A stretch of 64,000 nt of DNA from Candidatus Latescibacterota bacterium. Lineage in GTDB: Bacteria > Latescibacterota > UBA2968 > UBA8231. The notes beneath the pieces are model-generated. The model worked only from the letters and a program-made list of their open reading frames with translations. It was not told the DNA's origin and made no database searches. Position numbers and translations under genes: made by a program. Numbering within the stretch: the first letter of the stretch is position 1; every line of letters starts with the position of its first letter. Positions 2,048 to 13,198 of this stretch are shown here, piece by piece. The stretch lies in assembly GCA_964291625.2 (NCBI GenBank), contig OZ220089.1, positions 4,640,001-4,704,000 of the forward strand. The letters are read 5' to 3'.

Positions 2048-4098
2048 CGAGCCGCGGCTCCCACGACGACGAACGCCGCCCCTTTGCCCTCGGCCGCCAC
2101 CGCCTGCGGTGGGTCCTGCTCGCCGGAGGTCTGATCTGGTCTCTCATCGGCTTGAGGCTTGTGCAGTTGCAGGCGATCGACCACGGCACCTACCAGCTGC
2201 GCGCCCGCAACCAGCATCAGCGGCAGATCCCGCTGAGCGCACGGCGCGGGGCCATCCTCGATCGCCGGGGCCGCGAGCTGGCATTCGACGTCACCGCCGT
2301 CTCCTTCTACTGCCGGCCCGCACAGGTCCGCGATCCCGACGCGGTGATGGCCCACTTCATGCGGTTTGGCCGACGCTCCGTCGACGCGGTGTCCCAGCTG
2401 ATCAGCGGCGGGCACCCCTTCGTCTATCTCCTCCGTCAGGTCGACGGTGAGCGGCTCCACCAGGTCCGCCAGAAGACCTTCGAAGGGGTGTACGAGCAAC
2501 TGGAGGTCCGCCGTCACTATCCCTACGGCCGCTTGGCCGGACAGCTCCTGGGGTTCACCGACATCGAGAACCGGGGCAAGGAGGGGACGGAGCTGGCCTT
2601 AGACGAGATCCTGGCCGAACGGGCCGGGTCCGCCCGATCCTACGTCGACGGCCTGGGGAACGTTCTTCCCGAGCGTTCGCAGCCGACCGCCGCCCCTCGG
2701 CACGGCGCCAGCGTCCATCTGACCATCGACGCCGCCATCCAGGAAATCCTGGAGGAAGAGCTGGCCCGCACCGTGGCTGAGACCCGGGCCGAGGGAGCCC
2801 TCGGCATCATCGTCGATCCACGGTCCGGGGAGATCCTGGCCATGGCCGGCATTCCCCTCTTCGATCCGAACGATCCGGGCGGAGTCCCCGCCAACCACCG
2901 CCGGAACCGTCTGGTCACCGATCCCTTCGAGCCAGGGTCGATCATCAAGCCCATCACCATGGCGGCCGTCCTCGATGCGGACCCGAGGGTCCTCGAGAGG
3001 AAGGTCTACTGCGAGCAGGGCGCCTACGCCCTGTCCATGGGGGACGTCATCCGGGACGTCAAGCCCCACGGCTGGCTGACACCGGCCGACGTGGTCGCCC
3101 AGTCGAGCAACATCGGGGTGATCAAGCTCGCCCAGGGGCTGGATCGGTCGAGCTACTACCAGTCCCTGCGCAGCTTCGGCTTCGGGACCCGGACCGGGAT
3201 CGGCCTTCCGGCGGAGAGCGCCGGGCTGTTGCGGCACGCCCGCGACTGGTCCAACCGCTCCCTGGAGACGATCTCCATCGGCCAGGAGATCAGCGTCACC
3301 GCGGTGCAGATGGTGCAGGCCTTCGGCGCCATCGCCAACGGGGGCATGCTGATGGCGCCGAAGGTGATCCAGGAGGTCCGGGATCCCGCGGGACAGATCC
3401 TGCGGCGGGAGGAACCGAAGCCCGTGCGCCGGGTCCTCTCCTCCAGAACCGCCTCGGTCCTCAAGGGAATGTTGCGGCGGGTGGTCAGCGACGGAACGGG
3501 GCGCAACGCGGCCATCGAAGGGGTCCAGGTGGCGGGCAAGACGGGGACCGCGCAACGCGCCCTTCCGGGGGGCGGCGGCTACGCCCAGGGCGAGTACATC
3601 GCTTCCTTCATCGGCTTCCTTCCGGCTACCGGGCAACCGCGCTACCTCTGCCTGGTCTCCGTGGAGAACCCGCGGCTCGGGAAGTGGGGGGGCGTCGTGG
3701 CGGCGCCCGCCTTCCGGCGCACCATGGAACGGATCCTCGTCCTCGACGGATCGCTGGCACCCGGCGGCATCCGGCCGGGCGCCCTGGCCGACGCCGCGAC
3801 CGAGGTCCCAGGCGAGGTCATGCCCGATTTCAGGGGGCTGGACGTGCCCCGGGTCAGGGTCCAGGCCCGCCGCCGGGATCTCAACCTCCGCTTCGAGGGC
3901 TCCGGCCCGATCGTGGTCGGCCAGGAGCCGGCGCCCAGGTCGCGCCGCACGGAGGCGGACATCCTGTGCCGTCTCGGCAGCCGGGCCGACCTGCTGGCCC
4001 TGGGGCTGCCCGAGGCGCCAATGCGCCAAGCCGTGCTGGTGCGCAAGCTGCAGGGCCCGCAGCTGGTGGCCCTCGCGCCGGGGGAGGGCGGGAGGTGA
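2044..4098 (+). CDS. ftsI: class B penicillin-binding protein FtsI/PBP3 with C-terminal PASTA-like domain
   Basis: RGAILDRRG, RHYPYG, GSIIK (SxxK), SSN, KTGT; VMPDFRGL PASTA-like tail. Confidence 0.95.
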   Translation: MTSRGSHDDERRPFALGRHRLRWVLLAGGLIWSLIGLRLVQLQAIDHGTYQLRARNQHQRQIPLSARRGAILDRRGRELAFDVTAVSFYCRPAQVRDPDAVMAHFMRFGRRSVDAVSQLISGGHPFVYLLRQVDGERLHQVRQKTFEGVYEQLEVRRHYPYGRLAGQLLGFTDIENRGKEGTELALDEILAERAGSARSYVDGLGNVLPERSQPTAAPRHGASVHLTIDAAIQEILEEELARTVAETRAEGALGIIVDPRSGEILAMAGIPLFDPNDPGGVPANHRRNRLVTDPFEPGSIIKPITMAAVLDADPRVLERKVYCEQGAYALSMGDVIRDVKPHGWLTPADVVAQSSNIGVIKLAQGLDRSSYYQSLRSFGFGTRTGIGLPAESAGLLRHARDWSNRSLETISIGQEISVTAVQMVQAFGAIANGGMLMAPKVIQEVRDPAGQILRREEPKPVRRVLSSRTASVLKGMLRRVVSDGTGRNAAIEGVQVAGKTGTAQRALPGGGGYAQGEYIASFIGFLPATGQPRYLCLVSVENPRLGKWGGVVAAPAFRRTMERILVLDGSLAPGGIRPGALADAATEVPGEVMPDFRGLDVPRVRVQARRRDLNLRFEGSGPIVVGQEPAPRSRRTEADILCRLGSRADLLALGLPEAPMRQAVLVRKLQGPQLVALAPGEGGR

Positions 4099-5546
4099 AG
4101 CTTCGCGACCTGATCGGCGCGATCCGGCCCGTCCACATCGGCGGATCCCTCGACGTGGAGATCGAATCGGTCGTCTCCGATTCGCGCCGGGCCGGCCCCG
4201 GAGCCCTGTTCGTGGCCGTTCGCGGCGGACAGGAGATCGACCGCCATTGTTTCGTCGATGATGCCCTCGCCCGCGGGGCTTCGGCGGTAGTGGTCGAGGA
4301 GGACGATGAGAGTCTGCCGTCGGCACGTATCCGCGTCGACGACTGCCGCCAGGCCCTGGCAGCCCTCGCGGCCCGGCTGCACGGCTGTCCGGCCCGATCC
4401 TTCCGGTGGCGCGTCGGGGTTACCGGAACCAACGGCAAGTCGACGACTGCCCTGCTTGTGCGCCACGTCCTGGAGGCCGCAGGGGCGCGCAGCGCCTACA
4501 TCGGGACCCTGGGATTCTCCTGCGGCGAAGGCATGGAGAGCCTCGACAACACCACGCCCGAGGCCGACCGGCTGCAGGCCCTGCTCGCCAGGGCCCGTGA
4601 CGCCGGATGCGACGCTCTGGTCATGGAGGTCTCCTCCCACGGTCTGGCTCTCCGCCGCGTCGACGGGATCGACTACTCGGTGGCCGTGTTTACCAATCTC
4701 ACGCGTGACCACCTCGACTTCCACGGCACCGAGGAGGACTACCTGGCGGCCAAGGCGACTCTCTTCCGGGGTCTCGGCCAGGGAGGGGCGGCGGTGGTGA
4801 ACGCCGATGATCCCCACGCTCCGGAGGTGGCGGCAAGCACTTCGGCCCGGGTGCTCACCTACGGCGAGAGGGGAGAGGACGTACGTCTCGCCAGCTTCGA
4901 CACCCGAGCGGGCTCCACCACCCTTCTGAAGCTGGAGACGCCGGCCGGAGAGTGGTCGGTGGAGACCAGCCTGGCGGGCCGGTTCAACCGCTGCAACGTG
5001 ATGGCCGCCGTCTGCACCGGCGTCGCCCTGGGGATCGATGCCGACGCCGTGCGGTCGGGAATCGCCGCCGTGTCCCAAGTGCCGGGCCGCTTCGAACGCC
5101 TGGACGAGGGCCAGCCCTTCGAAGTCATCGTCGACTACGCTCACACGCCCGCCGGTCTCGACACGGTGCTGCGCACCGCCAGGGAGTTGACGCGGGGCCG
5201 GCTTCTTTGCCTTTTTGGCTGTGGTGGCGACCGCGACAAGGGCAAGCGGCCTCTCATGGGGCGCGTCGCCGAGGATCTGGCCGATCTCGTCTTCCTCACC
5301 TCCGACAACCCGCGGGGGGAGCCGCCCGAGGAGATCATCGATCAGATCGTCGCCGGCATGCGCGAAGCCGACTCCGCCGTGGTTTGTCCGGATCGGCGCG
5401 CCGCCATCGATGCAGCCCTGCAAGAGGCCGGCGATGGGGACGTGGTGGTGGTGGCGGGCAAGGGGGACGAACCGTACCAGATCCTGGCCGACGGACCCAC
5501 CGACTTCGACGACCGCCAGGTCGTGCGCCAGGTGCTTCGCAAGTAA
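4095..5546 (+). CDS. murE: UDP-MurNAc-Ala-Glu--meso-diaminopimelate ligase MurE
   Basis: GVTGTNGKST, NTTP, MEVSSH, DHLDFH, DYAHTP, DNPR (DAP-specific motif), AGKG. Confidence 0.97.
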   Translation: MKLRDLIGAIRPVHIGGSLDVEIESVVSDSRRAGPGALFVAVRGGQEIDRHCFVDDALARGASAVVVEEDDESLPSARIRVDDCRQALAALAARLHGCPARSFRWRVGVTGTNGKSTTALLVRHVLEAAGARSAYIGTLGFSCGEGMESLDNTTPEADRLQALLARARDAGCDALVMEVSSHGLALRRVDGIDYSVAVFTNLTRDHLDFHGTEEDYLAAKATLFRGLGQGGAAVVNADDPHAPEVAASTSARVLTYGERGEDVRLASFDTRAGSTTLLKLETPAGEWSVETSLAGRFNRCNVMAAVCTGVALGIDADAVRSGIAAVSQVPGRFERLDEGQPFEVIVDYAHTPAGLDTVLRTARELTRGRLLCLFGCGGDRDKGKRPLMGRVAEDLADLVFLTSDNPRGEPPEEIIDQIVAGMREADSAVVCPDRRAAIDAALQEAGDGDVVVVAGKGDEPYQILADGPTDFDDRQVVRQVLRK

Positions 5547-6931
5547 TGTGGCGCGACATCCACATCGAGGAGGTCCGCACCTGGACGAGGGCGGAGTGGA
5601 GAGGAGGGGAGGATCTCAGGGGGCGGCTGGCGACGGGTGTCTCCACCGACACTCGAACCCTCGAGCCCGGCGAGATCTTCGTGGCCCTGGCGGGCGAGCG
5701 CTTCGATGGCCACGACCACGTCTCCGAGGCCTTCGAGAGGGGCGCGAGTTCGGCCATCGTCGATCGCCGGCGGGTGGATGGTCTCCGGTTGACGGGGCCG
5801 GCCAGGGCGGCTTGTCTGATGGTCGTGGATTCTCCGGTGCGGGCCCTGGGCCGGATGGCCCGCCACTACCGCCGGCGATTCGACCTGCCCGTGGTCGCCA
5901 TCACCGGCTCGTCCGGGAAAACGACGGTCAAGGAGATGGTCGCCGCGGTCCTCGGACGGCGGTTCCGGGTCCTGAAGACACCGGAGAACGAGAACAGCGA
6001 GATCGGTGTGCCCCGGGCCCTGCTGAGACTGTCGGCGGATCACTCCGCCGCGGTCCTCGAGCTCGCGGCGAGGCGGGTGGGGGACATCGAGTATCTGTGC
6101 CGGGTCGTGCAGCCTACGGTCGGGGTTCTGCTGAACATCGGCGCGGCGCACGCCGGTATATTTGGATCTGTAGAGAGAGTGGCCAAGGCCAAAGGGGAGC
6201 TCCTGGACGAAATCGTGGATGAGTCTTACGTGGCTCTCGTAAACGCCGACGACTGTGTCATTGCCAGGGAGGCTAAGAGGACAAAGGGGAGACTCCTTGG
6301 CTTCGGTTGGCGGCGTGAGAGCCATTTCAGTGGGGAGGGACTCTTCCTCGACCAGGAGGGCTGCGGCCACTTCTCTCTACAGAAAACCTCCTTCGATCTC
6401 CGCATCCCGGGGCGGCACAATGCGCACAACGCACTGGCGGCCATCGCATGTGCGCGCATGTGCGGCGTGCCCCTGGGGGAAGCCAGCGCCGCCCTGGGTG
6501 GGTTCCAGCCACTGCACATGCGCTCGGCCATTCTGCAGAGACGGGGAGTGCGGGTGATCGACGACTGTTACAACGCCAACCCCGGCTCGGTCCGGGCCGC
6601 CCTGGATCTGACGGCGGAGATCCCCGTCAAAGGCCGCCGGGTGGCCGTCCTCGGGGACATGATGGAGCTCGGCGAGGCGAGCGAATCCCTTCACGAGGGA
6701 ATCGGCCGCCACGCCGCAGACCGAGTCGATGTTCTGCTGGGCACCGGTTCCCAGAGCGTGTACACGGTGCGTGCGGCCCGGGAGGCGGGGCTGGACCCGC
6801 GCCGGGCTCTTCACTTCGAGGACCGGGGCGAGCTGATCCACCATCTGGAGCAGGAGGTTTCCGAAGGCGATCTGGTTCTCGTCAAGGGCTCTCGCGGCAT
6901 GGCCCTCGAATCGGTCGTCGAGGCTTTGTAG
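5546..6931 (+). CDS. murF: UDP-MurNAc-tripeptide--D-Ala-D-Ala ligase MurF
   Basis: TDTR, GERFDGH, ITGSSGKTT, NADD, DCYNANP, LGDMMELG, KGSRG. Confidence 0.96.
   Translation: MWRDIHIEEVRTWTRAEWRGGEDLRGRLATGVSTDTRTLEPGEIFVALAGERFDGHDHVSEAFERGASSAIVDRRRVDGLRLTGPARAACLMVVDSPVRALGRMARHYRRRFDLPVVAITGSSGKTTVKEMVAAVLGRRFRVLKTPENENSEIGVPRALLRLSADHSAAVLELAARRVGDIEYLCRVVQPTVGVLLNIGAAHAGIFGSVERVAKAKGELLDEIVDESYVALVNADDCVIAREAKRTKGRLLGFGWRRESHFSGEGLFLDQEGCGHFSLQKTSFDLRIPGRHNAHNALAAIACARMCGVPLGEASAALGGFQPLHMRSAILQRRGVRVIDDCYNANPGSVRAALDLTAEIPVKGRRVAVLGDMMELGEASESLHEGIGRHAADRVDVLLGTGSQSVYTVRAAREAGLDPRRALHFEDRGELIHHLEQEVSEGDLVLVKGSRGMALESVVEAL
6167..6383 (+). ncRNA. putative long rod-like RNA structure nested in the murF coding sequence
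   Basis: Six nested stems: 6167-6184/6365-6383, 6200-6210/6348-6358, 6217-6225/6339-6347, 6231-6238/6317-6324, 6243-6253/6306-6316, 6263-6271/6293-6301; G-U pairs favour the + strand; local drop in GC at third codon positions. Confidence 0.7.
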
Positions 6932-6950
6932 ATTCCGTCTCCCGGGCCCT

Positions 6951-7065
6951 GCCGCCGTCCCCTCGGCGGCGCCGTTTGACAGGCAGTCCCCGCGCCATCC
7001 CCTGGCGCGGCCCGAGGTTGGTATCACCCTCCCCCGGCGCGTGGTTTCGCGCCCCCCTTTGTCCT
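6951..7065 (+). promoter_or_regulatory. structured murF-ftsW spacer (three hairpins, two with UCCCC loops)
   Basis: GCCGCCG-tcccct-CGGCGGC (6951-6970), CCGCGCCA-tcccc-TGGCGCGG (6990-7010), GGCGCG-tggttt-CGCGCC (7036-7053), followed by CCCCTTTGTCCT. Confidence 0.6.
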
Positions 7066-7081
7066 GACGCTGGCTCGAGTC

Positions 7082-8284
7082 ATGCCGGACGCCTCGCAAC
7101 GTGCAGCTCGCCACGTTCTCCTGATCGCCACGATGCTCGTCGGCATCGGCGTCGTCATGGTGTACAGCTCCAGCTCGGCCCTGGCGGGAGCGAAGTTCGA
7201 GAACAGCGGATTCTTCCTTCAGCGCCAGCTGATGAGGGCCGCCTTCGGCCTGATCATGATGCTCCTCCTCTCGCGGGTGCCCCTCTCTCTGTGGCGTCTG
7301 CTGGCGCGGCCCCTGCTCCTGGTGGGCATCCTGCTCCTCGTCCTGGTGCTCATCCTGGGCGAGGGCCGGGGGGCGCAGCGCTGGCTTCCCTTCGGGCTGC
7401 CCTCCCTCGCCACCCTGTCCTTCCAGCCTTCCGAGTTCGTCAAGCTCGTCCTCGTCCTCTACCTGGCAGACGTGCTGGCACGGAAGCAAAGCGACATGGG
7501 CGACTGGAGACTGGGCCTGGCCCCCCGGCTCGCGGTGATCTCTGTCGTTCAGGTCCTGATCGTCCTGCAGCCCGACCTCGGCACGGCCCTGGCCATCAGC
7601 GCCATCTCCATGGTCATCCTCTGGCTCGGCGGGGCGGGCACCTCCCACCTGGCCCTGGTGGCCTCAGGGGCCGGCTTGGTGGCGGGCTGGTCGGTGCTGT
7701 CCTCGCCCTACCAGCTCGAGCGCGTGCGGACCTTCCTCGTGGGAGCGGATCCGCAGGGGGCCGGCTTCCAGGTGGACCAGGCGCTGCTGGCTCTCGGCAG
7801 CGGGGGCTGGCTCGGCGTCGGCCTCGGCAACAGCATGCAGAAGCACTACCTGCCAGAGCCACATACCGACTTCGTCTTCGCCTTCGTCGGCGAGGAACTC
7901 GGCTTGCTCGGCGCCCTGAGCATCATCTGCCTCTTCGTGGCCCTGTCCGTCCACGGCTACCGGATCGCCACGAGGGCCGCCACCTTCCACGGATTCCTCG
8001 TGGCCTCCGGGATCACGGTGATGGTGGGGACCTACGCTCTGCTCAACGTCGCCGTGGCAACCGGCCTCATGCCGACCACGGGACTGCCCCTGCCCTTCGT
8101 CAGCTACGGCGGATCCTCGCTGCTGCTGAACCTGAGCGGCATCGGCCTTCTCGCCGCCGTGGCCCGCGAGAAGGTACCGGCCGCGTCGACGGCCTGGCGC
8201 CGGCGCGGAGAGCTGTCGCGGCCCCATCCACCAGGCACCGATGACTACTGGGTCCCACGCCCGGCACCGGCGGGCAGCCAATGA
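7082..8284 (+). CDS. ftsW: SEDS peptidoglycan polymerase FtsW
   Basis: Multi-TM; MVYSSS, QRWL, FQPSEFVK, QPDLGT, LPEPHTDF, GLPLPFVSYGGSS. Confidence 0.96.
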   Translation: MPDASQRAARHVLLIATMLVGIGVVMVYSSSSALAGAKFENSGFFLQRQLMRAAFGLIMMLLLSRVPLSLWRLLARPLLLVGILLLVLVLILGEGRGAQRWLPFGLPSLATLSFQPSEFVKLVLVLYLADVLARKQSDMGDWRLGLAPRLAVISVVQVLIVLQPDLGTALAISAISMVILWLGGAGTSHLALVASGAGLVAGWSVLSSPYQLERVRTFLVGADPQGAGFQVDQALLALGSGGWLGVGLGNSMQKHYLPEPHTDFVFAFVGEELGLLGALSIICLFVALSVHGYRIATRAATFHGFLVASGITVMVGTYALLNVAVATGLMPTTGLPLPFVSYGGSSLLLNLSGIGLLAAVAREKVPAASTAWRRRGELSRPHPPGTDDYWVPRPAPAGSQ

Positions 8285-9687
8285 GAATGCCTCTTCGGGA
8301 CCGCGGAGCCCGTGCCGGAGAACCTCTCGGGGCGGGGGTGAAGCGAGTGCACATGGTCGGCATAGGCGGCGCCGGCATGGAGGCCCTGGCACGGCTCCTG
8401 GTCGATCTCGGCTACCGGGTGAGCGGTTCCGACGCGGCCGCTGGCCCCGGGGTCACCGACCTCCAGCAGTCGGGTGTTCCCGTGCGCGTCGGCCACCACG
8501 CATCGCAGGTCGAGGGCGCCGATCTCCTCGTGTACTCCTCGGCCGTGGACGAGGAGAACTGCGAGCGCCGGGCCGCGGCGCGTCTGGGGATCGAGCAGTG
8601 GTCGAGGGCCCGCGCCCTGGGCGCCGTGAGCCGCACCTGCTATACGGTGGCCGTGGCCGGCACTCACGGCAAGACGACGACGGCTTCCCTGATTGTCGGT
8701 GCCCTGCGCTGCGCGGGGCACGAGCCCCGGGTCGCCATCGGCGGCTGGATGGGGGGGCGTCCGCAACCGACGGCCCGGTCCGGAGACCTGCTGGTGGTCG
8801 AGGCGGACGAATATCGCCGCGCCTTCCACGAACTCGAGCCCTGGATCTCGGTGGTCACCAACATCGAGATGGAGCACGTCGACTGCTTTGACGGCCGCGA
8901 CGACCTCGTCGAGGCCTTCGGCGTCTTCCTCTCCCGGTGCCGGCGCGGGGGCGGCGTCGCCGTCAATGGCGACGACGAGCTTTGCCGGGCGGCGGCTGTG
9001 CGGTCGCGGGCGGACGCGTCCCTGACCTTCGGTTTCGGACCCTCCTGCCAGGTGCGCGCCGAAGCCCTGGCGCCGACGGGCACGGGATCGGCCTTCGCCG
9101 TCCACCTGGACGGAGAGCGTCGGCCGGTCGACCTGGGCGTCCCGGGGAGGCATAATGTCAGCAACGCCCTGGCGGCCATCGCCGCGACCCGCCTGATGGG
9201 CCTGGCCTGGGAGCCGGTCTCCTCGGCCCTGCGCCGCTTCACCGGGGTGGATCGGCGCTACCAGTCCCGGGGGGAGGTGGAGGGGGTGGCCATCGTCGAC
9301 GACTACGCGCACCATCCGACGGAGGTCTCGGCCACGGTGGCGACGGCAGCGGCGACCGGGAGAAGGGTGACCGCCGTTTTTCAGCCCCACACCTACTCCC
9401 GTACGCGCCACTTCCACGAGGCGTTTGCCGAGTCCCTGCTCAACGCCCACAGGGTGTGCGTGACCTCCGTCTACGCGGCCCGGGAAAGCCCGGATCTGGG
9501 GGACGAGGGGGATGTCATCGTCGACGATCTGCGGCGCCTGGGACACCATCGGGCGCGCTTCGTGGCCGAGGCCGACCTCGCCCTGTCCCGCTCCCTGGCG
9601 GAGTGCGCCGCCGGTGACCTTCTCCTGGTGATGGGGGCCGGGGACATCGGCGACCACCTCGGGGACCTTCTGGAGGGTACGGCCTGA
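8281..9687 (+). CDS. murC: UDP-N-acetylmuramate--L-alanine ligase MurC (true start may be GTG 8338)
   Basis: GIGGAGM, AGTHGKTTT, EADE, DDYAHHPTE, FQPH, MGAGDI. Confidence 0.96.
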   Translation: MRMPLRDRGARAGEPLGAGVKRVHMVGIGGAGMEALARLLVDLGYRVSGSDAAAGPGVTDLQQSGVPVRVGHHASQVEGADLLVYSSAVDEENCERRAAARLGIEQWSRARALGAVSRTCYTVAVAGTHGKTTTASLIVGALRCAGHEPRVAIGGWMGGRPQPTARSGDLLVVEADEYRRAFHELEPWISVVTNIEMEHVDCFDGRDDLVEAFGVFLSRCRRGGGVAVNGDDELCRAAAVRSRADASLTFGFGPSCQVRAEALAPTGTGSAFAVHLDGERRPVDLGVPGRHNVSNALAAIAATRLMGLAWEPVSSALRRFTGVDRRYQSRGEVEGVAIVDDYAHHPTEVSATVATAAATGRRVTAVFQPHTYSRTRHFHEAFAESLLNAHRVCVTSVYAARESPDLGDEGDVIVDDLRRLGHHRARFVAEADLALSRSLAECAAGDLLLVMGAGDIGDHLGDLLEGTA

Positions 9688-9688
9688 G

Positions 9689-10558
9689 ATGACGCCGCGG
9701 AAGAAGGCCGGGCAGGCCGGAGTGCCCATGGCCTCCCCGGCCGGGGCTCCGGGACACCGGTGGCGGCGGCCTGTGCTGGCGGCGGGCCTGGCGGCGGTGA
9801 CGGCTCTGACTCTCGGCATCCAGGGAGCGCAGTCGACGCCGATGGAGTCTCCCTTCCGCGTCGACATCCTCGAGGTGCGCGGCCTCCGCCTGCTGCACGG
9901 GGACATGATTCTCGCTGCCAGCGGCATCGCGGCGGGGGCGGAACTCTTCGACATCGACCCGGACCGGCTGGCCGAGCGTCTCAGGCGCCTGGTGTGGGTG
10001 CGAGAGGCGCGGGTGGTGCGCAGGCCTCCGGACCGCCTGATCGTCCATCTCGAGGAACGCCGCCGGACCGCCTGGGTCGATTGGCGCGGCGTCCAGTACG
10101 GCCTCGACCCGGAAGGGGTCCTGCTGCCGCCCGAGCGACTGCCCGCGGAGAGCATCGCGGATCTCGATCTGCCGGTGTTGCGGGTACGCTCCCTGGTCGC
10201 CGGGGGGGACACGGTGAGGCCGGGGAAGGTAGTGACCGACAGCACCGCCCTCCGATTGCTGGGGTGGCTGGGTGAGGCCTCGGAGCAGGCTCCCGACCTG
10301 GCCTCGGAGATCTCCCAGCTCACCGACTTCGATGGTCTCAGCCTGGGGATGCGGCTGGTGGCCGACGGGCTCGAGGTCCGGGTCCCTCCAGACCGAGTGG
10401 AGGAGCGGATGGCCGTTCTGCGGGAAGTCCTCAAGCGCGTCTACCGGGAGGTTCCAAACCCCTCCTACGTCGATCTGAGGTTTGCGGGCCAGGCCGTCGT
10501 CGGCTCGCACAAAGAGGCAAGGAACCCAATGGGCGGTGCCCACCACAGGAAGAGATGA
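9689..10558 (+). CDS. ftsQ: cell division protein FtsQ/DivIB
   Basis: Single TM, POTRA-like segment (WVREARVVRRPPDRLIVHLEER), C-terminal YVDLRF. Confidence 0.9.
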   Translation: MTPRKKAGQAGVPMASPAGAPGHRWRRPVLAAGLAAVTALTLGIQGAQSTPMESPFRVDILEVRGLRLLHGDMILAASGIAAGAELFDIDPDRLAERLRRLVWVREARVVRRPPDRLIVHLEERRRTAWVDWRGVQYGLDPEGVLLPPERLPAESIADLDLPVLRVRSLVAGGDTVRPGKVVTDSTALRLLGWLGEASEQAPDLASEISQLTDFDGLSLGMRLVADGLEVRVPPDRVEERMAVLREVLKRVYREVPNPSYVDLRFAGQAVVGSHKEARNPMGGAHHRKR

Positions 10559-10595
10559 CGAGAGCAGAAACCAACAACCGAAGGAGAGCAGGAAC

Positions 10596-11705
10596 ATGAC
10601 TTTCGAGATCATCGACTTCGAGCGCTGCGCGAACATCAAGGTCGTCGGTGTCGGAGGCGCCGGCGGCAACGCCATCAACCGGATGGTGGCCTCGGGTATG
10701 CGCGGCGTGGAATTCGTCGCCGTCAACACGGACAGCCAGGACCTCGAGGCGTCGGCGGCGGATGTCGGCATCTGCATCGGCGAGAGCGTCACTCGAGGCC
10801 TGGGTGCCGGCGCCAAACCAGAGATCGGACGCGCCTCGATCGAAGAGGACCGCGACAGGGTCGCCGAGAGGCTGCAGGACACCGACCTGGTGTTCATCAC
10901 GGCGGGGATGGGAGGGGGTACGGGGACCGGGGCGGCGCCGATAGCCGCCCAGATCGCCAAGGAACTGGGCTCCCTCACCGTGGGAATCGTGACCGAGCCC
11001 TTCCACTTCGAGGGTCTTCCCCGGATGCGCAATGCCCAGGCGGGCATCTCGGAGTTGCAGGAGCACGTGGACACGCTGATCGTGATCAAGAACGAGCGCC
11101 TCCTGTCGATCGTCTCTCGGGACACCACTCTGGAGGAGGCCTTCAACCAGGCCGACGAAGTGCTGTTGCAGGCCACCCGGGGCATCGCCGATCTGATCAC
11201 CATCCCCGGCATGATCAACCTCGACTTCAACGATGTGAGGACGGTGATCACCGAAGGCGGCGACGCGATCATCGCCGTCGGCGCCCACCAGGGGGAGAAC
11301 CGGGCCGTGGAGGCGGCCAAGAAAGCGATCAAGAGCCCCCTCATAGGGGAGATCTCCATCAACGGCGCCCGCGGAGCGCTGATCAACATCACCGCCGGCT
11401 CGAGCCTCACCCTCTTCGAGGCCAACGAAGCGGCGCAGATCATCCAGGAGGCCGCGGGCAGCGAGGCCAACATCATCTTCGGGACGGTGATCGACCCGGC
11501 CATCGAGGACGAGATGCGGGTCACCGTCATCGCCACCGGCTTCCACCTCAACCAGCGGCCCACGCACTTCGATCCCGAGCCGGCCGCACCCCAGGCCCGC
11601 CCGCAGCGCGGCCAGGCCCCTCAGCCGGAGGCGGAGGCGGGGGCGGGGGCTTCCGAGTGGGGCGACCTCGACTACCCGGCCGTCCTGAGGCGTCGAATGG
11701 CCTGA
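10596..11705 (+). CDS. ftsZ: cell division protein FtsZ
   Basis: GVGGAGGNA, GMGGGTGTG tubulin signature, NLDFND, C-terminal DLDYPAVLR; AAGGAG RBS. Confidence 0.99.
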   Translation: MTFEIIDFERCANIKVVGVGGAGGNAINRMVASGMRGVEFVAVNTDSQDLEASAADVGICIGESVTRGLGAGAKPEIGRASIEEDRDRVAERLQDTDLVFITAGMGGGTGTGAAPIAAQIAKELGSLTVGIVTEPFHFEGLPRMRNAQAGISELQEHVDTLIVIKNERLLSIVSRDTTLEEAFNQADEVLLQATRGIADLITIPGMINLDFNDVRTVITEGGDAIIAVGAHQGENRAVEAAKKAIKSPLIGEISINGARGALINITAGSSLTLFEANEAAQIIQEAAGSEANIIFGTVIDPAIEDEMRVTVIATGFHLNQRPTHFDPEPAAPQARPQRGQAPQPEAEAGAGASEWGDLDYPAVLRRRMA

Positions 11706-12361: not shown

Positions 12362-13198
12362 GTGCCTGACCGAAGACGCATCTCCAAGCTCCTCTCCCTC
12401 ATCCTCCGCCATCATCCCGACGAGTTCGGGCTGAACATGGACGAGTACGGATACATGCCTCTCGACGAGGTGGTGGAGGCCGTGCAGCAGCGCTACTCCG
12501 CCGTCGAGGAGGAGGACATCCGCGACCTCATCGATACCTCCCGCCAGCGGCGTTTCGAGATCGTCGACGATCGCATCCGCGCCCTCTACGGCCACACTTT
12601 CTACGTCGAGATGGACGGGGAGCCGATGGATCCTCCCGAGAGCCTGTTCCTGTGCGTCTCGGCGGCCCAGGTGCGGCGCATGAGGGAGGAAGGTATCCGC
12701 TCCGAGGACCGCTCCTACCTGCACCTGTCCCCCACCCGCGAGATCGCCGAGTCGCGCGCCGGAGCGGTGACCGACCCTTGTGTCGTCGAGGTCCATGCCG
12801 AGGCCGCGGCGCGCGAGGCCGAAGTGGAGTTCTGGGACCGCGGAGAGGTCGTGCTGACGCGGCAGACGATCGCCACCGAGTTCGTCGGAGAGGCCATCGA
12901 GATCGAGGCCCCCCCGGCCGTCGACGGGGGACGTGAGTCCCGCGGAGGCCGGCGCGGACGGCGCGGACGCGACGGCCGGGGCAGGGGGGAGCGCTCAGGG
13001 GGCGACTCCGGGCAGGGGCAGCGTCCCCCGCGGGAGCGTCCCCCCGCGGACCGGGCGCCCGTGTCAGGCAGCCCGGCCCCTCGCCGGGAGGCGCCGATGC
13101 TGACGGCCCCGGTACGGGGCAACGGCGAGGCCCCCGGGCGGCAGGAGATCAGCTACGGCCGCCGCCCGAAATTCGAGCAGGGGTCCGGGCGGCGCTGA
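12362..13198 (+). CDS. kptA: RNA 2'-phosphotransferase Tpt1/KptA family with Arg/Gly-rich C-terminal tail
   Basis: SKLLSLILRH, RRFE, IRALYGHT, RSYLHLS motifs. Confidence 0.85.
   Translation: MPDRRRISKLLSLILRHHPDEFGLNMDEYGYMPLDEVVEAVQQRYSAVEEEDIRDLIDTSRQRRFEIVDDRIRALYGHTFYVEMDGEPMDPPESLFLCVSAAQVRRMREEGIRSEDRSYLHLSPTREIAESRAGAVTDPCVVEVHAEAAAREAEVEFWDRGEVVLTRQTIATEFVGEAIEIEAPPAVDGGRESRGGRRGRRGRDGRGRGERSGGDSGQGQRPPRERPPADRAPVSGSPAPRREAPMLTAPVRGNGEAPGRQEISYGRRPKFEQGSGRR

Follow-up and report, generated by a model that had tools for sequence, protein, structure and literature searches.

A 217-nt rod-shaped RNA structure conserved within the murF coding sequence throughout one bacterial class

In this study, a 64,000-nt stretch of DNA from a Candidatus Latescibacterota bacterium (contig OZ220089.1, positions 4,640,001 to 4,704,000; hereafter the window) was analysed, and a rod-shaped RNA element of 217 nt was characterised at positions 6167-6383 of its plus strand, wholly inside the open reading frame (ORF) of murF. 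The rod of about 217 nt is held by purifying selection acting on nucleotides, synonymous sites included, and was inherited vertically with murF throughout one class, in which it is universal wherever murF was seen; most of the metagenome-assembled genomes (MAGs) that carry it are labelled Candidatus Latescibacterota. It is almost certainly a selected RNA structure of the sense strand that overlies the murF coding sequence. The full statement, in which this dual-coded structure is also released as a stable trans-acting RNA, is finely balanced, and our opinion falls slightly on the side of doubt.

A series of nested stems between 6167 and 6383 had been described in a first-pass annotation of this DNA, and all of them were recovered, displaced by a few bases at most, in the sequence itself, in the minimum free energy (MFE) fold and in the consensus folds. 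For counts over related sequences, 109 sequences were reduced to a non-redundant set of 49 at ≤96% identity, one truncated locus having been removed beforehand. The parts of the rod are as follows.

6167-6383, plus strand: whole rod-shaped RNA element, 217 nt, scoring 234.1 bits with covariance model R1
6167-6184, plus strand: 5′ strand of P1, UCUGUAGAGAGAGUGGCC, pairing with 6365-6383 in 18 pairs
6187-6190, plus strand: 5′ strand of P2, GGCC, pairing with 6359-6362 (columns 27-30 with 199-202)
6191-6199, plus strand: one-sided bulge with G-rich motif 1, AAAGGGGAG, unpaired in the consensus folds
6200-6206, plus strand: 5′ strand of P3, CUCCUGG, pairing with 6352-6358 (98.8% paired)
6217-6227, plus strand: 5′ strand of P4, GGAUGAGUCUU, pairing with 6337-6347 (95.4% paired)
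6228-6263, plus strand: 5′ side of the central arm, variable in sequence, mostly paired with 6301-6336 (helices 4-6, 78-80% paired in the 49 sequences)
6264-6300, plus strand: apical hairpin, with stem 6264-6271 pairing with 6293-6300 (95.7% paired) and a 21-nt loop at 6272-6292
6330-6342, plus strand: G-rich motif 3, GUGGGGAGGGACU, 12 of 13 positions invariant, its 3′ half being the 3′ strand of P4
6337-6347, plus strand: 3′ strand of P4 (pair-model count)
6352-6362, plus strand: 3′ strands of P3 and P2, CCAGGAG and GGCU (pair-model count)
6365-6383, plus strand: 3′ strand of P1, GGCCACUUCUCUCUACAGA, with a bulged U at 6371 (MFE and consensus folds)

The MFE of the rod was -111.2 kcal/mol, compared with -80.1 ± 5.4 kcal/mol for dinucleotide shuffles (z = -5.81; 0/200 shuffles as good). 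Shuffling of synonymous codons in the window sequence gave z = -5.0 when codons were permuted within the region and z = -4.0 when they were drawn from the rest of the gene. The codon-shuffle and antisense-fold tests were applied to 13 orthologs out of 30. With codons permuted within the region, z ranged from -2.4 to -6.3 in all 13; when the rest of the gene supplied the codons, the range was -0.8 to -5.9. The comparison with codon-shuffled murF that had been suggested at first pass gave negative values throughout. Apart from two weak orthologs (L032 and L021), neither of the outcomes named there as refuting the element, an energy no better than codon shuffles or orthologs lacking conservation and compensation, was observed. 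P1 (18 bp, one bulge) and P2 (4 bp) form a 22-bp base, helix 1, that was 94.1% paired in the 49 sequences; P1 was present in the single-sequence MFE fold of every one of them, and 27 of the 49 folded as unbranched rods. Central helices were formed by 6233-6238 with 6317-6322 and by 6251-6255 with 6304-6308, and the pairing registers of the central arm differed between two subgroups. The largest loops of the consensus measured 9 nt (a one-sided bulge), 10 by 4 (internal) and 21 nt (the end loop).

Orthologous murF sequences were aligned by codon, 27 in all after three near-identical ones had been removed from 30, and pairs that agree in amino acid were scored for use of the same codon. The identical fraction was 0.72-0.92 in every 12-codon window over 6164-6394, compared with 0.29-0.51 elsewhere in murF. 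The next window after 6394 dropped to 0.43, and no synonymous constraint was observed in this alignment just upstream of the element. With edges this sharp at the hairpin ends, the constraint bears out the earlier proposal that synonymous sites are selected for a dual-coded RNA element. Third-position identity in the 347 most divergent pairs, those with a flank identity of 0.5-0.6, was 68% in the element versus 36% in the flanks, and the GC content of the element was held at 0.48-0.59 while that of the host gene spanned 0.51 to 0.69. Element identity followed flank identity (Spearman 0.77 over 435 pairs), indicating that the segment was inherited with the gene, evolving more slowly, and did not spread sideways. 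The element was present in a single copy in the window genome by blastn and by covariance model R1 (no second match at E ≤ 1), and the other five reading frames were free of stops in only 0-1 of the 49 sequences.

The element corresponds to murF codons 208-280, within the middle domain. As had been reported at first pass, MurF itself is normal: the frame is intact, the Mur_ligase, Mur_ligase_M and Mur_ligase_C domains are present, the protein is colinear with its orthologs in the alignment, and the conserved MurF motifs are still encoded by the element segment. The interval had also been said to abandon the codon bias of the genome. A departure exists, GC content at third codon positions (GC3) being 0.68 over the 73 element codons versus 0.84 over the other 388 murF codons, but the dip is moderate. 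Rare codons ending in A or T are clustered in the element, and local GC content is 0.57-0.59 there versus 0.67-0.72 around it.

Covariation among orthologs, which had been named as a check of the structure, was found. An RNAalifold consensus of 30 sequences contained 49 pairs, 11 of them with compensatory changes. In a 61-pair model counted over the 49 sequences, 91.9% of cells were paired versus 88.4% in shuffles, and 21 pairs changed on both sides versus 10.9 ± 1.8 in shuffles (0/500 as high, which is a count and not a probability). When partners were slid by 1-3 columns, 6-10 two-sided changes were obtained versus 21 in the model, a comparison that favours the model over its slid versions, the pairs having been derived from the same sequences. 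In P1, a compensatory change from G-C to A-U at columns 15/215 was observed in 8 sequences; in P3, C-G was replaced by U-A at columns 42/196 and 43/195 in 5 and 4 sequences, respectively. Three pairs of the apical stem showed compensatory changes in 7, 11 and 17 sequences, the last being A-U to C-G or G-C at columns 106/138. Two U-G pairs in P4, at columns 66/178 and 67/177, were kept in 47/49 and 49/49 sequences, and the sense strand folded better than the antisense strand in 13/13 orthologs tested, by 10.8 to 37.5 kcal/mol. Because of these near-invariant U-G pairs and the difference in folding energy, the structure is assigned to the messenger RNA (mRNA) strand, in line with the first-pass remark that its G-U pairs work only on the sense strand.

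Across the 49 sequences, 77 columns were invariant, and three G-rich motifs stood out among them. Motif 1, AAAGGGGA, was invariant in the one-sided bulge at 6191-6198 (columns A31-A38, 49/49), and motif 2, AAGGGGAG, was invariant in the apical loop at 6284-6291. Motif 3, GUGGGGAGGG, is located at 6330-6339, and its 3′ part pairs weakly with GAGUCUU; columns 170-179, 181 and 182 were invariant in 49/49 sequences, and column 180 (the A of GGGACU) was conserved in at least 90%. Invariant sequence in single-stranded positions indicates a specific partner. At its 3′ end, the 16S ribosomal RNA (rRNA) of the window genome (GGAUCACCUCCUUUCU) carries CUCCUUU, with which AAAGGGG could pair; this genome also encodes RNase III (PF14622, 113.5 bits). 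The rod contains four invariant G-runs 20-50 bp apart, for which a G-quadruplex was considered. The longer forms of the motifs were found nowhere else in the window genome. A regulon of similar hairpins was sought there and not found: the longer motifs occurred once, and 9-mers were not above the estimated composition expectation.

A whole-gene blastn search over 40 relatives matched 39 of 41 genomes, the window's own included. In other families of the same class, only nucleotides 588-897 of murF, mostly 616-837, which is the hairpin, still matched as DNA. With a 229-nt query and a phylum set of 168 genomes, the element was matched in 124 of the 131 class members other than the window genome (family f1, 71/75; f2, 28/31; f3, 3/3; f4, 22/22). 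Of the seven class genomes that gave no match, five were inspected, and none showed a murF ortholog, giving just 27-30% matches to other Mur ligases or nothing; because no ortholog was detected, the absence of the element in these five reflects missing sequence and not loss of the element. Among the ten other families of the phylum, 1 of 36 genomes was matched, over 47 nt only. One genome of family f1, G155 (6.1 Mb, 2 contigs, 95% complete), yielded neither murF, with the window MurF as the query, nor the element, though it is almost closed; the region may be missing from its assembly, or its murF may be absent or divergent.

A pattern of the three motifs was also used to scan one genome for each of 185,579 species. 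This yielded 89 stretches, and the 80 listed were all in murF, on the sense strand, with MurF orthologs of 46-98% identity at these loci. The 80 MAGs were labelled Latescibacterota or Latescibacteria (52), Gemmatimonadota, Gemmatimonadetes, Gemmatimonadaceae or Gemmatimonas (21), Handelsmanbacteria (1) and Planctomycetota (1), with 5 unnamed. Metagenome contigs gave 69 further stretches, and these say nothing about discrete RNAs because all were on contigs of at least 1 kb. No element was matched in viral contigs by the pattern scan. As an out-of-class control, the orthologous murF segment was tested in five genomes from other families of the phylum; four gave z values of +1.3, -1.0, +1.0 and +0.4, with R1 scores of 8.5 bits or less. 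Outside the class this segment is 213-216 nt long, so the element is no length insertion. The fifth, locus L129 (L129:2038-2263; genome G050, family f9, another class), gave z = -2.8 and 81.7 bits with R1. There, the apical hairpin and its loop motif, AAGGGGAGACUCCUUGG, were kept and the bulge motif occurred as AAAGGGGAA, while P1, P3 and P4 were not complementary. This form is possibly ancestral, or possibly decayed, and the apical hairpin may be the older core.

Part of murF was found in 20 public runs, of which many are sponge samples and six are recorded as RNA; four RNA runs were examined over 3600-9700. In X16, a sponge metatranscriptome, summed contig k-mer depth was 7670 at 6048-6251, 16680 at 6252-6455 and 2562 at 6456-6659, versus 0-31 in the other bins, with a depth of 20871 at position 6246. 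Flanking contigs with 98-99% identity to the window had depths of 21.2 (5875-6208) and 8.0 (6722-7326). By rough arithmetic, the signal from the element region makes up approximately 1% of the letters in X16, and a single amplified molecule is unlikely because the bin averages exceed what one fragment alone could give. Adapter-bounded contigs ended at 6179, within P1, and at 6286/6287, within the loop motif, with uniform orientation among those shown. From one library and short of proof, these values strongly hint at a rod much more abundant than its mRNA. A 144-nt contig of run X17 that starts at 6178, near the X16 end at 6179, was rejected as an RNA end, an assembly break being equally likely there, where relatives differ at 6176 and 6178. 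Cover limited to 6065-6397 of 6.1 kb in X18 (a poly-A library) and to 14 of 30 bins in X17 was not used, missing cover being no evidence in runs found with murF itself.

Several observations speak against a selected structure that is released as a stable RNA. The fold barely exceeded gene-usage codon shuffles in orthologs L032 (z = -0.8) and L021 (z = -2.1), covariation was modest, with most pairs hardly varying, and the shuffle test of two-sided changes overstates significance because the 49 sequences are related. The RNA evidence comes from assembled contigs only, and contig depth is one figure per contig that sums other organisms; it is a poor measure of expression and cannot rank parts of a gene. 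Enrichment was observed in one run only, X16. The 3′ end of a released RNA was not seen among its contigs, a 405-nt contig of depth 2562 extends to 6661, and the abundant species may exceed the rod. Adapter orientation in X16 places read 1 on the minus strand, which we take to mean plus-sense RNA if this was a deoxyuridine triphosphate (dUTP) library; the strandedness of the library is undocumented. In X2, a single 1679-nt contig (4782-6460, depth 13.4) traverses the element, with an excess of about twofold at most, and the value in X17 was only 29.6 versus 7.7-8.6, which co-occurring relatives sharing the conserved stretch could explain. No partner was found, CsrA (PF02599, E ≤ 0.01, genome 95% complete) and Ro (TROVE, PF05731) both being absent from the matches in the genome.

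In the window, murF belongs to a compact cell-division and cell-wall cluster at 3684-11705 that comprises ftsI, murE, murF, ftsW, murC, ftsQ and ftsZ; mraY, murD and murG do not lie between murF and ftsW in this cluster. The host gene and its neighbours are as follows.

3684-5546, plus strand: murE, the upstream gene, whose end abuts the start of murF and whose true start is not fixed (Pfam Mur_ligase_M, Mur_ligase_C)
5546-6931, plus strand: murF, the host gene of the element, encoding UDP-MurNAc-pentapeptide synthetase, 461 aa, intact (Pfam Mur_ligase, Mur_ligase_M at aa 119-303, Mur_ligase_C)
7082-8284, plus strand: ftsW, the downstream gene, in the same cluster (Pfam FTSW_RODA_SPOVE)

A GC-rich spacer of 150 nt (6932-7081) follows murF. 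Within 5900-6700, no promoter-like or terminator-like site was detected in a consensus scan whose promoter part was limited to the sigma-70 type, possibly not applicable in this phylum, and no transfer RNA or transfer-messenger RNA was detected with ARAGORN. The sequence TATATTTG, directly upstream of the element, was considered as a promoter and dropped, the alignment showing that it is not conserved in relatives. Because no such site was found and there is no constraint just upstream, the element is taken to arise from the operon transcript.

It is proposed that the element would be made as part of the ftsI-murE-murF-ftsW-murC-ftsQ-ftsZ transcript. The rod would fold when ribosomes do not keep the region open and would then be cut out at its base, with RNase III acting in the 22-bp P1/P2 stem as the obvious candidate for the cut. 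Once excised, it would persist as a very stable RNA of approximately 200 nt, displaying a third G-rich block together with two identical single-stranded motifs, AAAGGGGAG of the bulge and AAGGGGAG of the apical loop. A conserved partner, which may be a protein or else the 16S rRNA through its pyrimidine-rich 3′ end, would bind at these sites. One murF message would be lost with every excision, and RNA output would thereby be coupled to the expression of cell-wall and division genes. In its strongest form the proposal is an abundant, housekeeping-grade regulatory RNA, either a new ribonucleoprotein RNA or a functional stand-in for 6S in a lineage in which none was detected, that sits within an essential ORF and is excised at the cost of the message; it would tie a class-wide global RNA regulator to the murein and division genes. 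This form is put forward tentatively, and we think it rather unlikely.

The main rival is a purely cis-acting switch for processing or decay of the cell-division operon, in which poor translation of murF lets the rod form and be cut, with RNase III as one possible nuclease. Such a switch would uncouple ftsI-murE from ftsW-murC-ftsQ-ftsZ or lower MurF, and the excised rod would be functionless and would accumulate by nuclease resistance. RNase III processing, one of the functions suggested at first pass, is compatible with the data. A cis role would agree with the position of the element in the middle of the operon, with no intergenic room upstream where murE abuts murF, and with a 22-bp P1/P2 stem in a genome that encodes RNase III. 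The fragment end inside P1 at 6179 in X16, the failure to find a promoter or terminator of its own in 5900-6700, and the X2 contig that runs unbroken through the element point the same way. However, a double-strand cleavage site needs shape and not sequence, yet 77 columns are invariant, including the single-stranded AAAGGGGA, AAGGGGAG and GUGGGGAGGG, and the very high depth in X16, if real, would be unusual for a decay by-product. A switch acting only in cis is possible, though we would not expect it to be the answer. Known RNase III stems, such as those of the rnc and pnp leaders and the phage T7 sites, are short untranslated-region hairpins whose shape, and not sequence, is conserved. The murF element is like them in having about two turns of nearly perfect duplex (P1/P2, 22 bp) in a genome with RNase III, but its stem encloses 180 nt of structured RNA in which the loops are invariant.

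That the element is a 6S-type RNA nested in murF, binding RNA polymerase holoenzyme and tuning transcription to growth state, is improbable. In 6S RNA, which binds the holoenzyme and templates product RNAs, an open promoter is imitated by a large two-sided central bubble; in E. coli the RNA is processed from a longer transcript, as the element would be. The element resembles 6S RNA (RF00013, RF01685) in size (approximately 200 nt), in its rod shape closed by a long stem and possibly in reaching a very high abundance. At E ≤ 1, the 5.9-Mb window genome gave no match to Rfam 6S or 6S-Flavo, and 6S matches were found in 0/114 genomes of the class and in 2/36 outside it, where they were full-length and sub-threshold (43.2 and 33.5 bits). 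The genome-wide absence of 6S could speak for a replacement in murF, but it is uninformative, since the Rfam model gave 2 sub-threshold matches in 151 genomes of the phylum and works in 4-5 of 14 control genomes. The nested 6S-like RNA suggested at first pass fails on both the model and the bubble: the element has no 6S match at E ≤ 10, and its consensus lacks a large two-sided central bubble. It also differs from 6S RNA in its invariant G-rich single-stranded motifs, and known 6S genes are intergenic whereas the murF element is wholly inside an essential ORF. The two sub-threshold matches, at L140 (G070:C134:1588-1767, 43.2 bits) and L141 (G064:C35:15051-15226, 33.5 bits), are the sole 6S-like matches in the 151 genomes, both outside the window's class. 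The classical site of 6S is upstream of the gene for 5-formyl-tetrahydrofolate cyclo-ligase; beside this gene there was no 6S match, and also no clear intergenic space.

A signal at the level of translation, in which the structure and three Shine-Dalgarno-like G-rich motifs slow or pause ribosomes in murF for co-translational folding or recoding, is more improbable still. It would account for the complementarity of AAAGGGG to CUCCUUU at the 16S 3′ end and for the clustering of rare A/T-ending codons in the element. However, no Shine-Dalgarno-like sequence was observed upstream of murF, ftsW and murC (5516-5545, 7052-7081 and 8251-8280; 3 clear cases among 8 starts inspected), and the anti-Shine-Dalgarno sequence may be little used by the lineage, although the 16S rRNA of the window genome has the usual 3′ terminus, CCUCCUUUCU. 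Alternative frames are closed, MurF is colinear with its orthologs, and ribosomes could pause without a 200-nt rod or compensatory pairs separated by 200 nt. Least credible of all, and already largely refuted, is a cause other than RNA: an overlapping or antisense gene, a DNA-level signal such as a cruciform or protein site, a mobile inverted repeat or recent horizontal spread. The high-GC DNA of the window does have long open frames on both strands here, but an overlapping or antisense protein gene was rejected, the other five frames being open in 0-1 of 49 sequences, and the G-U pairs and the energy gap favour one strand. A miniature inverted-repeat transposable element or a repetitive extragenic palindromic element was likewise rejected: the segment is single copy, encodes conserved MurF motifs, and is equal in length in and out of the class, with no insertion relative to the out-of-class orthologs (213-216 nt). 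Divergence of the element follows that of the gene (Spearman 0.77), and none was found in viral contigs.

The Rfam scan recommended at first pass, with 6S included, matched no family; at E ≤ 10, stretches 5000-7500 and 6150-6400 gave chance-level matches only. Those to Actino-pnp, archaeal sR47, sR30 and sR4, and a human long non-coding RNA fragment were far below the cut-offs and were dismissed. A signal recognition particle (SRP) RNA was also dismissed, the canonical small SRP RNA being elsewhere in the genome (75.6 bits) and the element having no SRP match, as was a Y RNA of a Ro particle, Ro (TROVE, PF05731) not being found in the genome. CsrB/RsmZ sponges resemble the element in exposing several GGA-containing motifs on a structured, possibly abundant RNA; unlike them, the element is not an independent gene and has only two or three motifs, and no CsrA was found in the genome. 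Known small RNAs released from the coding regions or 3′ ends of bacterial operon mRNAs come mostly from 3′ untranslated regions, are short and Hfq-dependent, and are conserved over genera. Like these, the element has no promoter of its own and would be released by endonucleolytic processing of operon mRNA; unlike these, it is a 217-nt near-perfect rod inside an ORF, and release would destroy the message. With the FRESCo approach (PMC4376164), cis-acting RNA elements in viral ORFs are reported to have been found as regions of excess synonymous constraint. They share with the murF element dual coding and a sharp synonymous drop coinciding with conserved RNA structure. The viral elements belong to RNA virus genomes and to viral replication or translation, whereas the murF element lies in a bacterial chromosomal housekeeping gene and is conserved at the level of a class.

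The constraint elements of viral ORFs and the bacterial mRNA-derived small RNAs are the nearest analogues, and a 217-nt rod that a whole class carries within an essential bacterial ORF is a novel form of these. A full-text literature search, which did not cover supplementary files, found no report of such an RNA element inside murF. Conserved structured bacterial RNAs have been sought almost only in intergenic DNA, and class-wide dual coding of this size in a core gene matches no Rfam family. As the element illustrates, the amino acid sequence of an essential enzyme can be dictated by an RNA: residues that are variable in MurF elsewhere are frozen within it. The element also offers a candidate new RNA class, open to testing, in a phylum without a cultured member, and more hidden RNAs could be revealed by scanning bacterial core genes for excess synonymous constraint. 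If the RNA is indeed excised and abundant, the expression of cell-wall and division genes would be linked to an RNA-based regulator.

Other features were observed in murF and near its cluster. In two orthologs, L018 (about 2171-2173) and L020 (about 1989), the murF frame breaks approximately 45-60 nt upstream of the element; these are different indels at different places, one a deletion of approximately 14 nt and one an extra C, and are most likely assembly errors and not recoding. A gene for a Tpt1/KptA RNA 2′-phosphotransferase is located at 12362-13198 on the plus strand, just downstream of ftsZ (PF01885, E = 8.4e-24); we know of no substrate for bacterial KptA. Downstream of the element, at 6445-6464, murF contains a short overlapping palindrome, CGCATGTGCGCGCATGTGCG.

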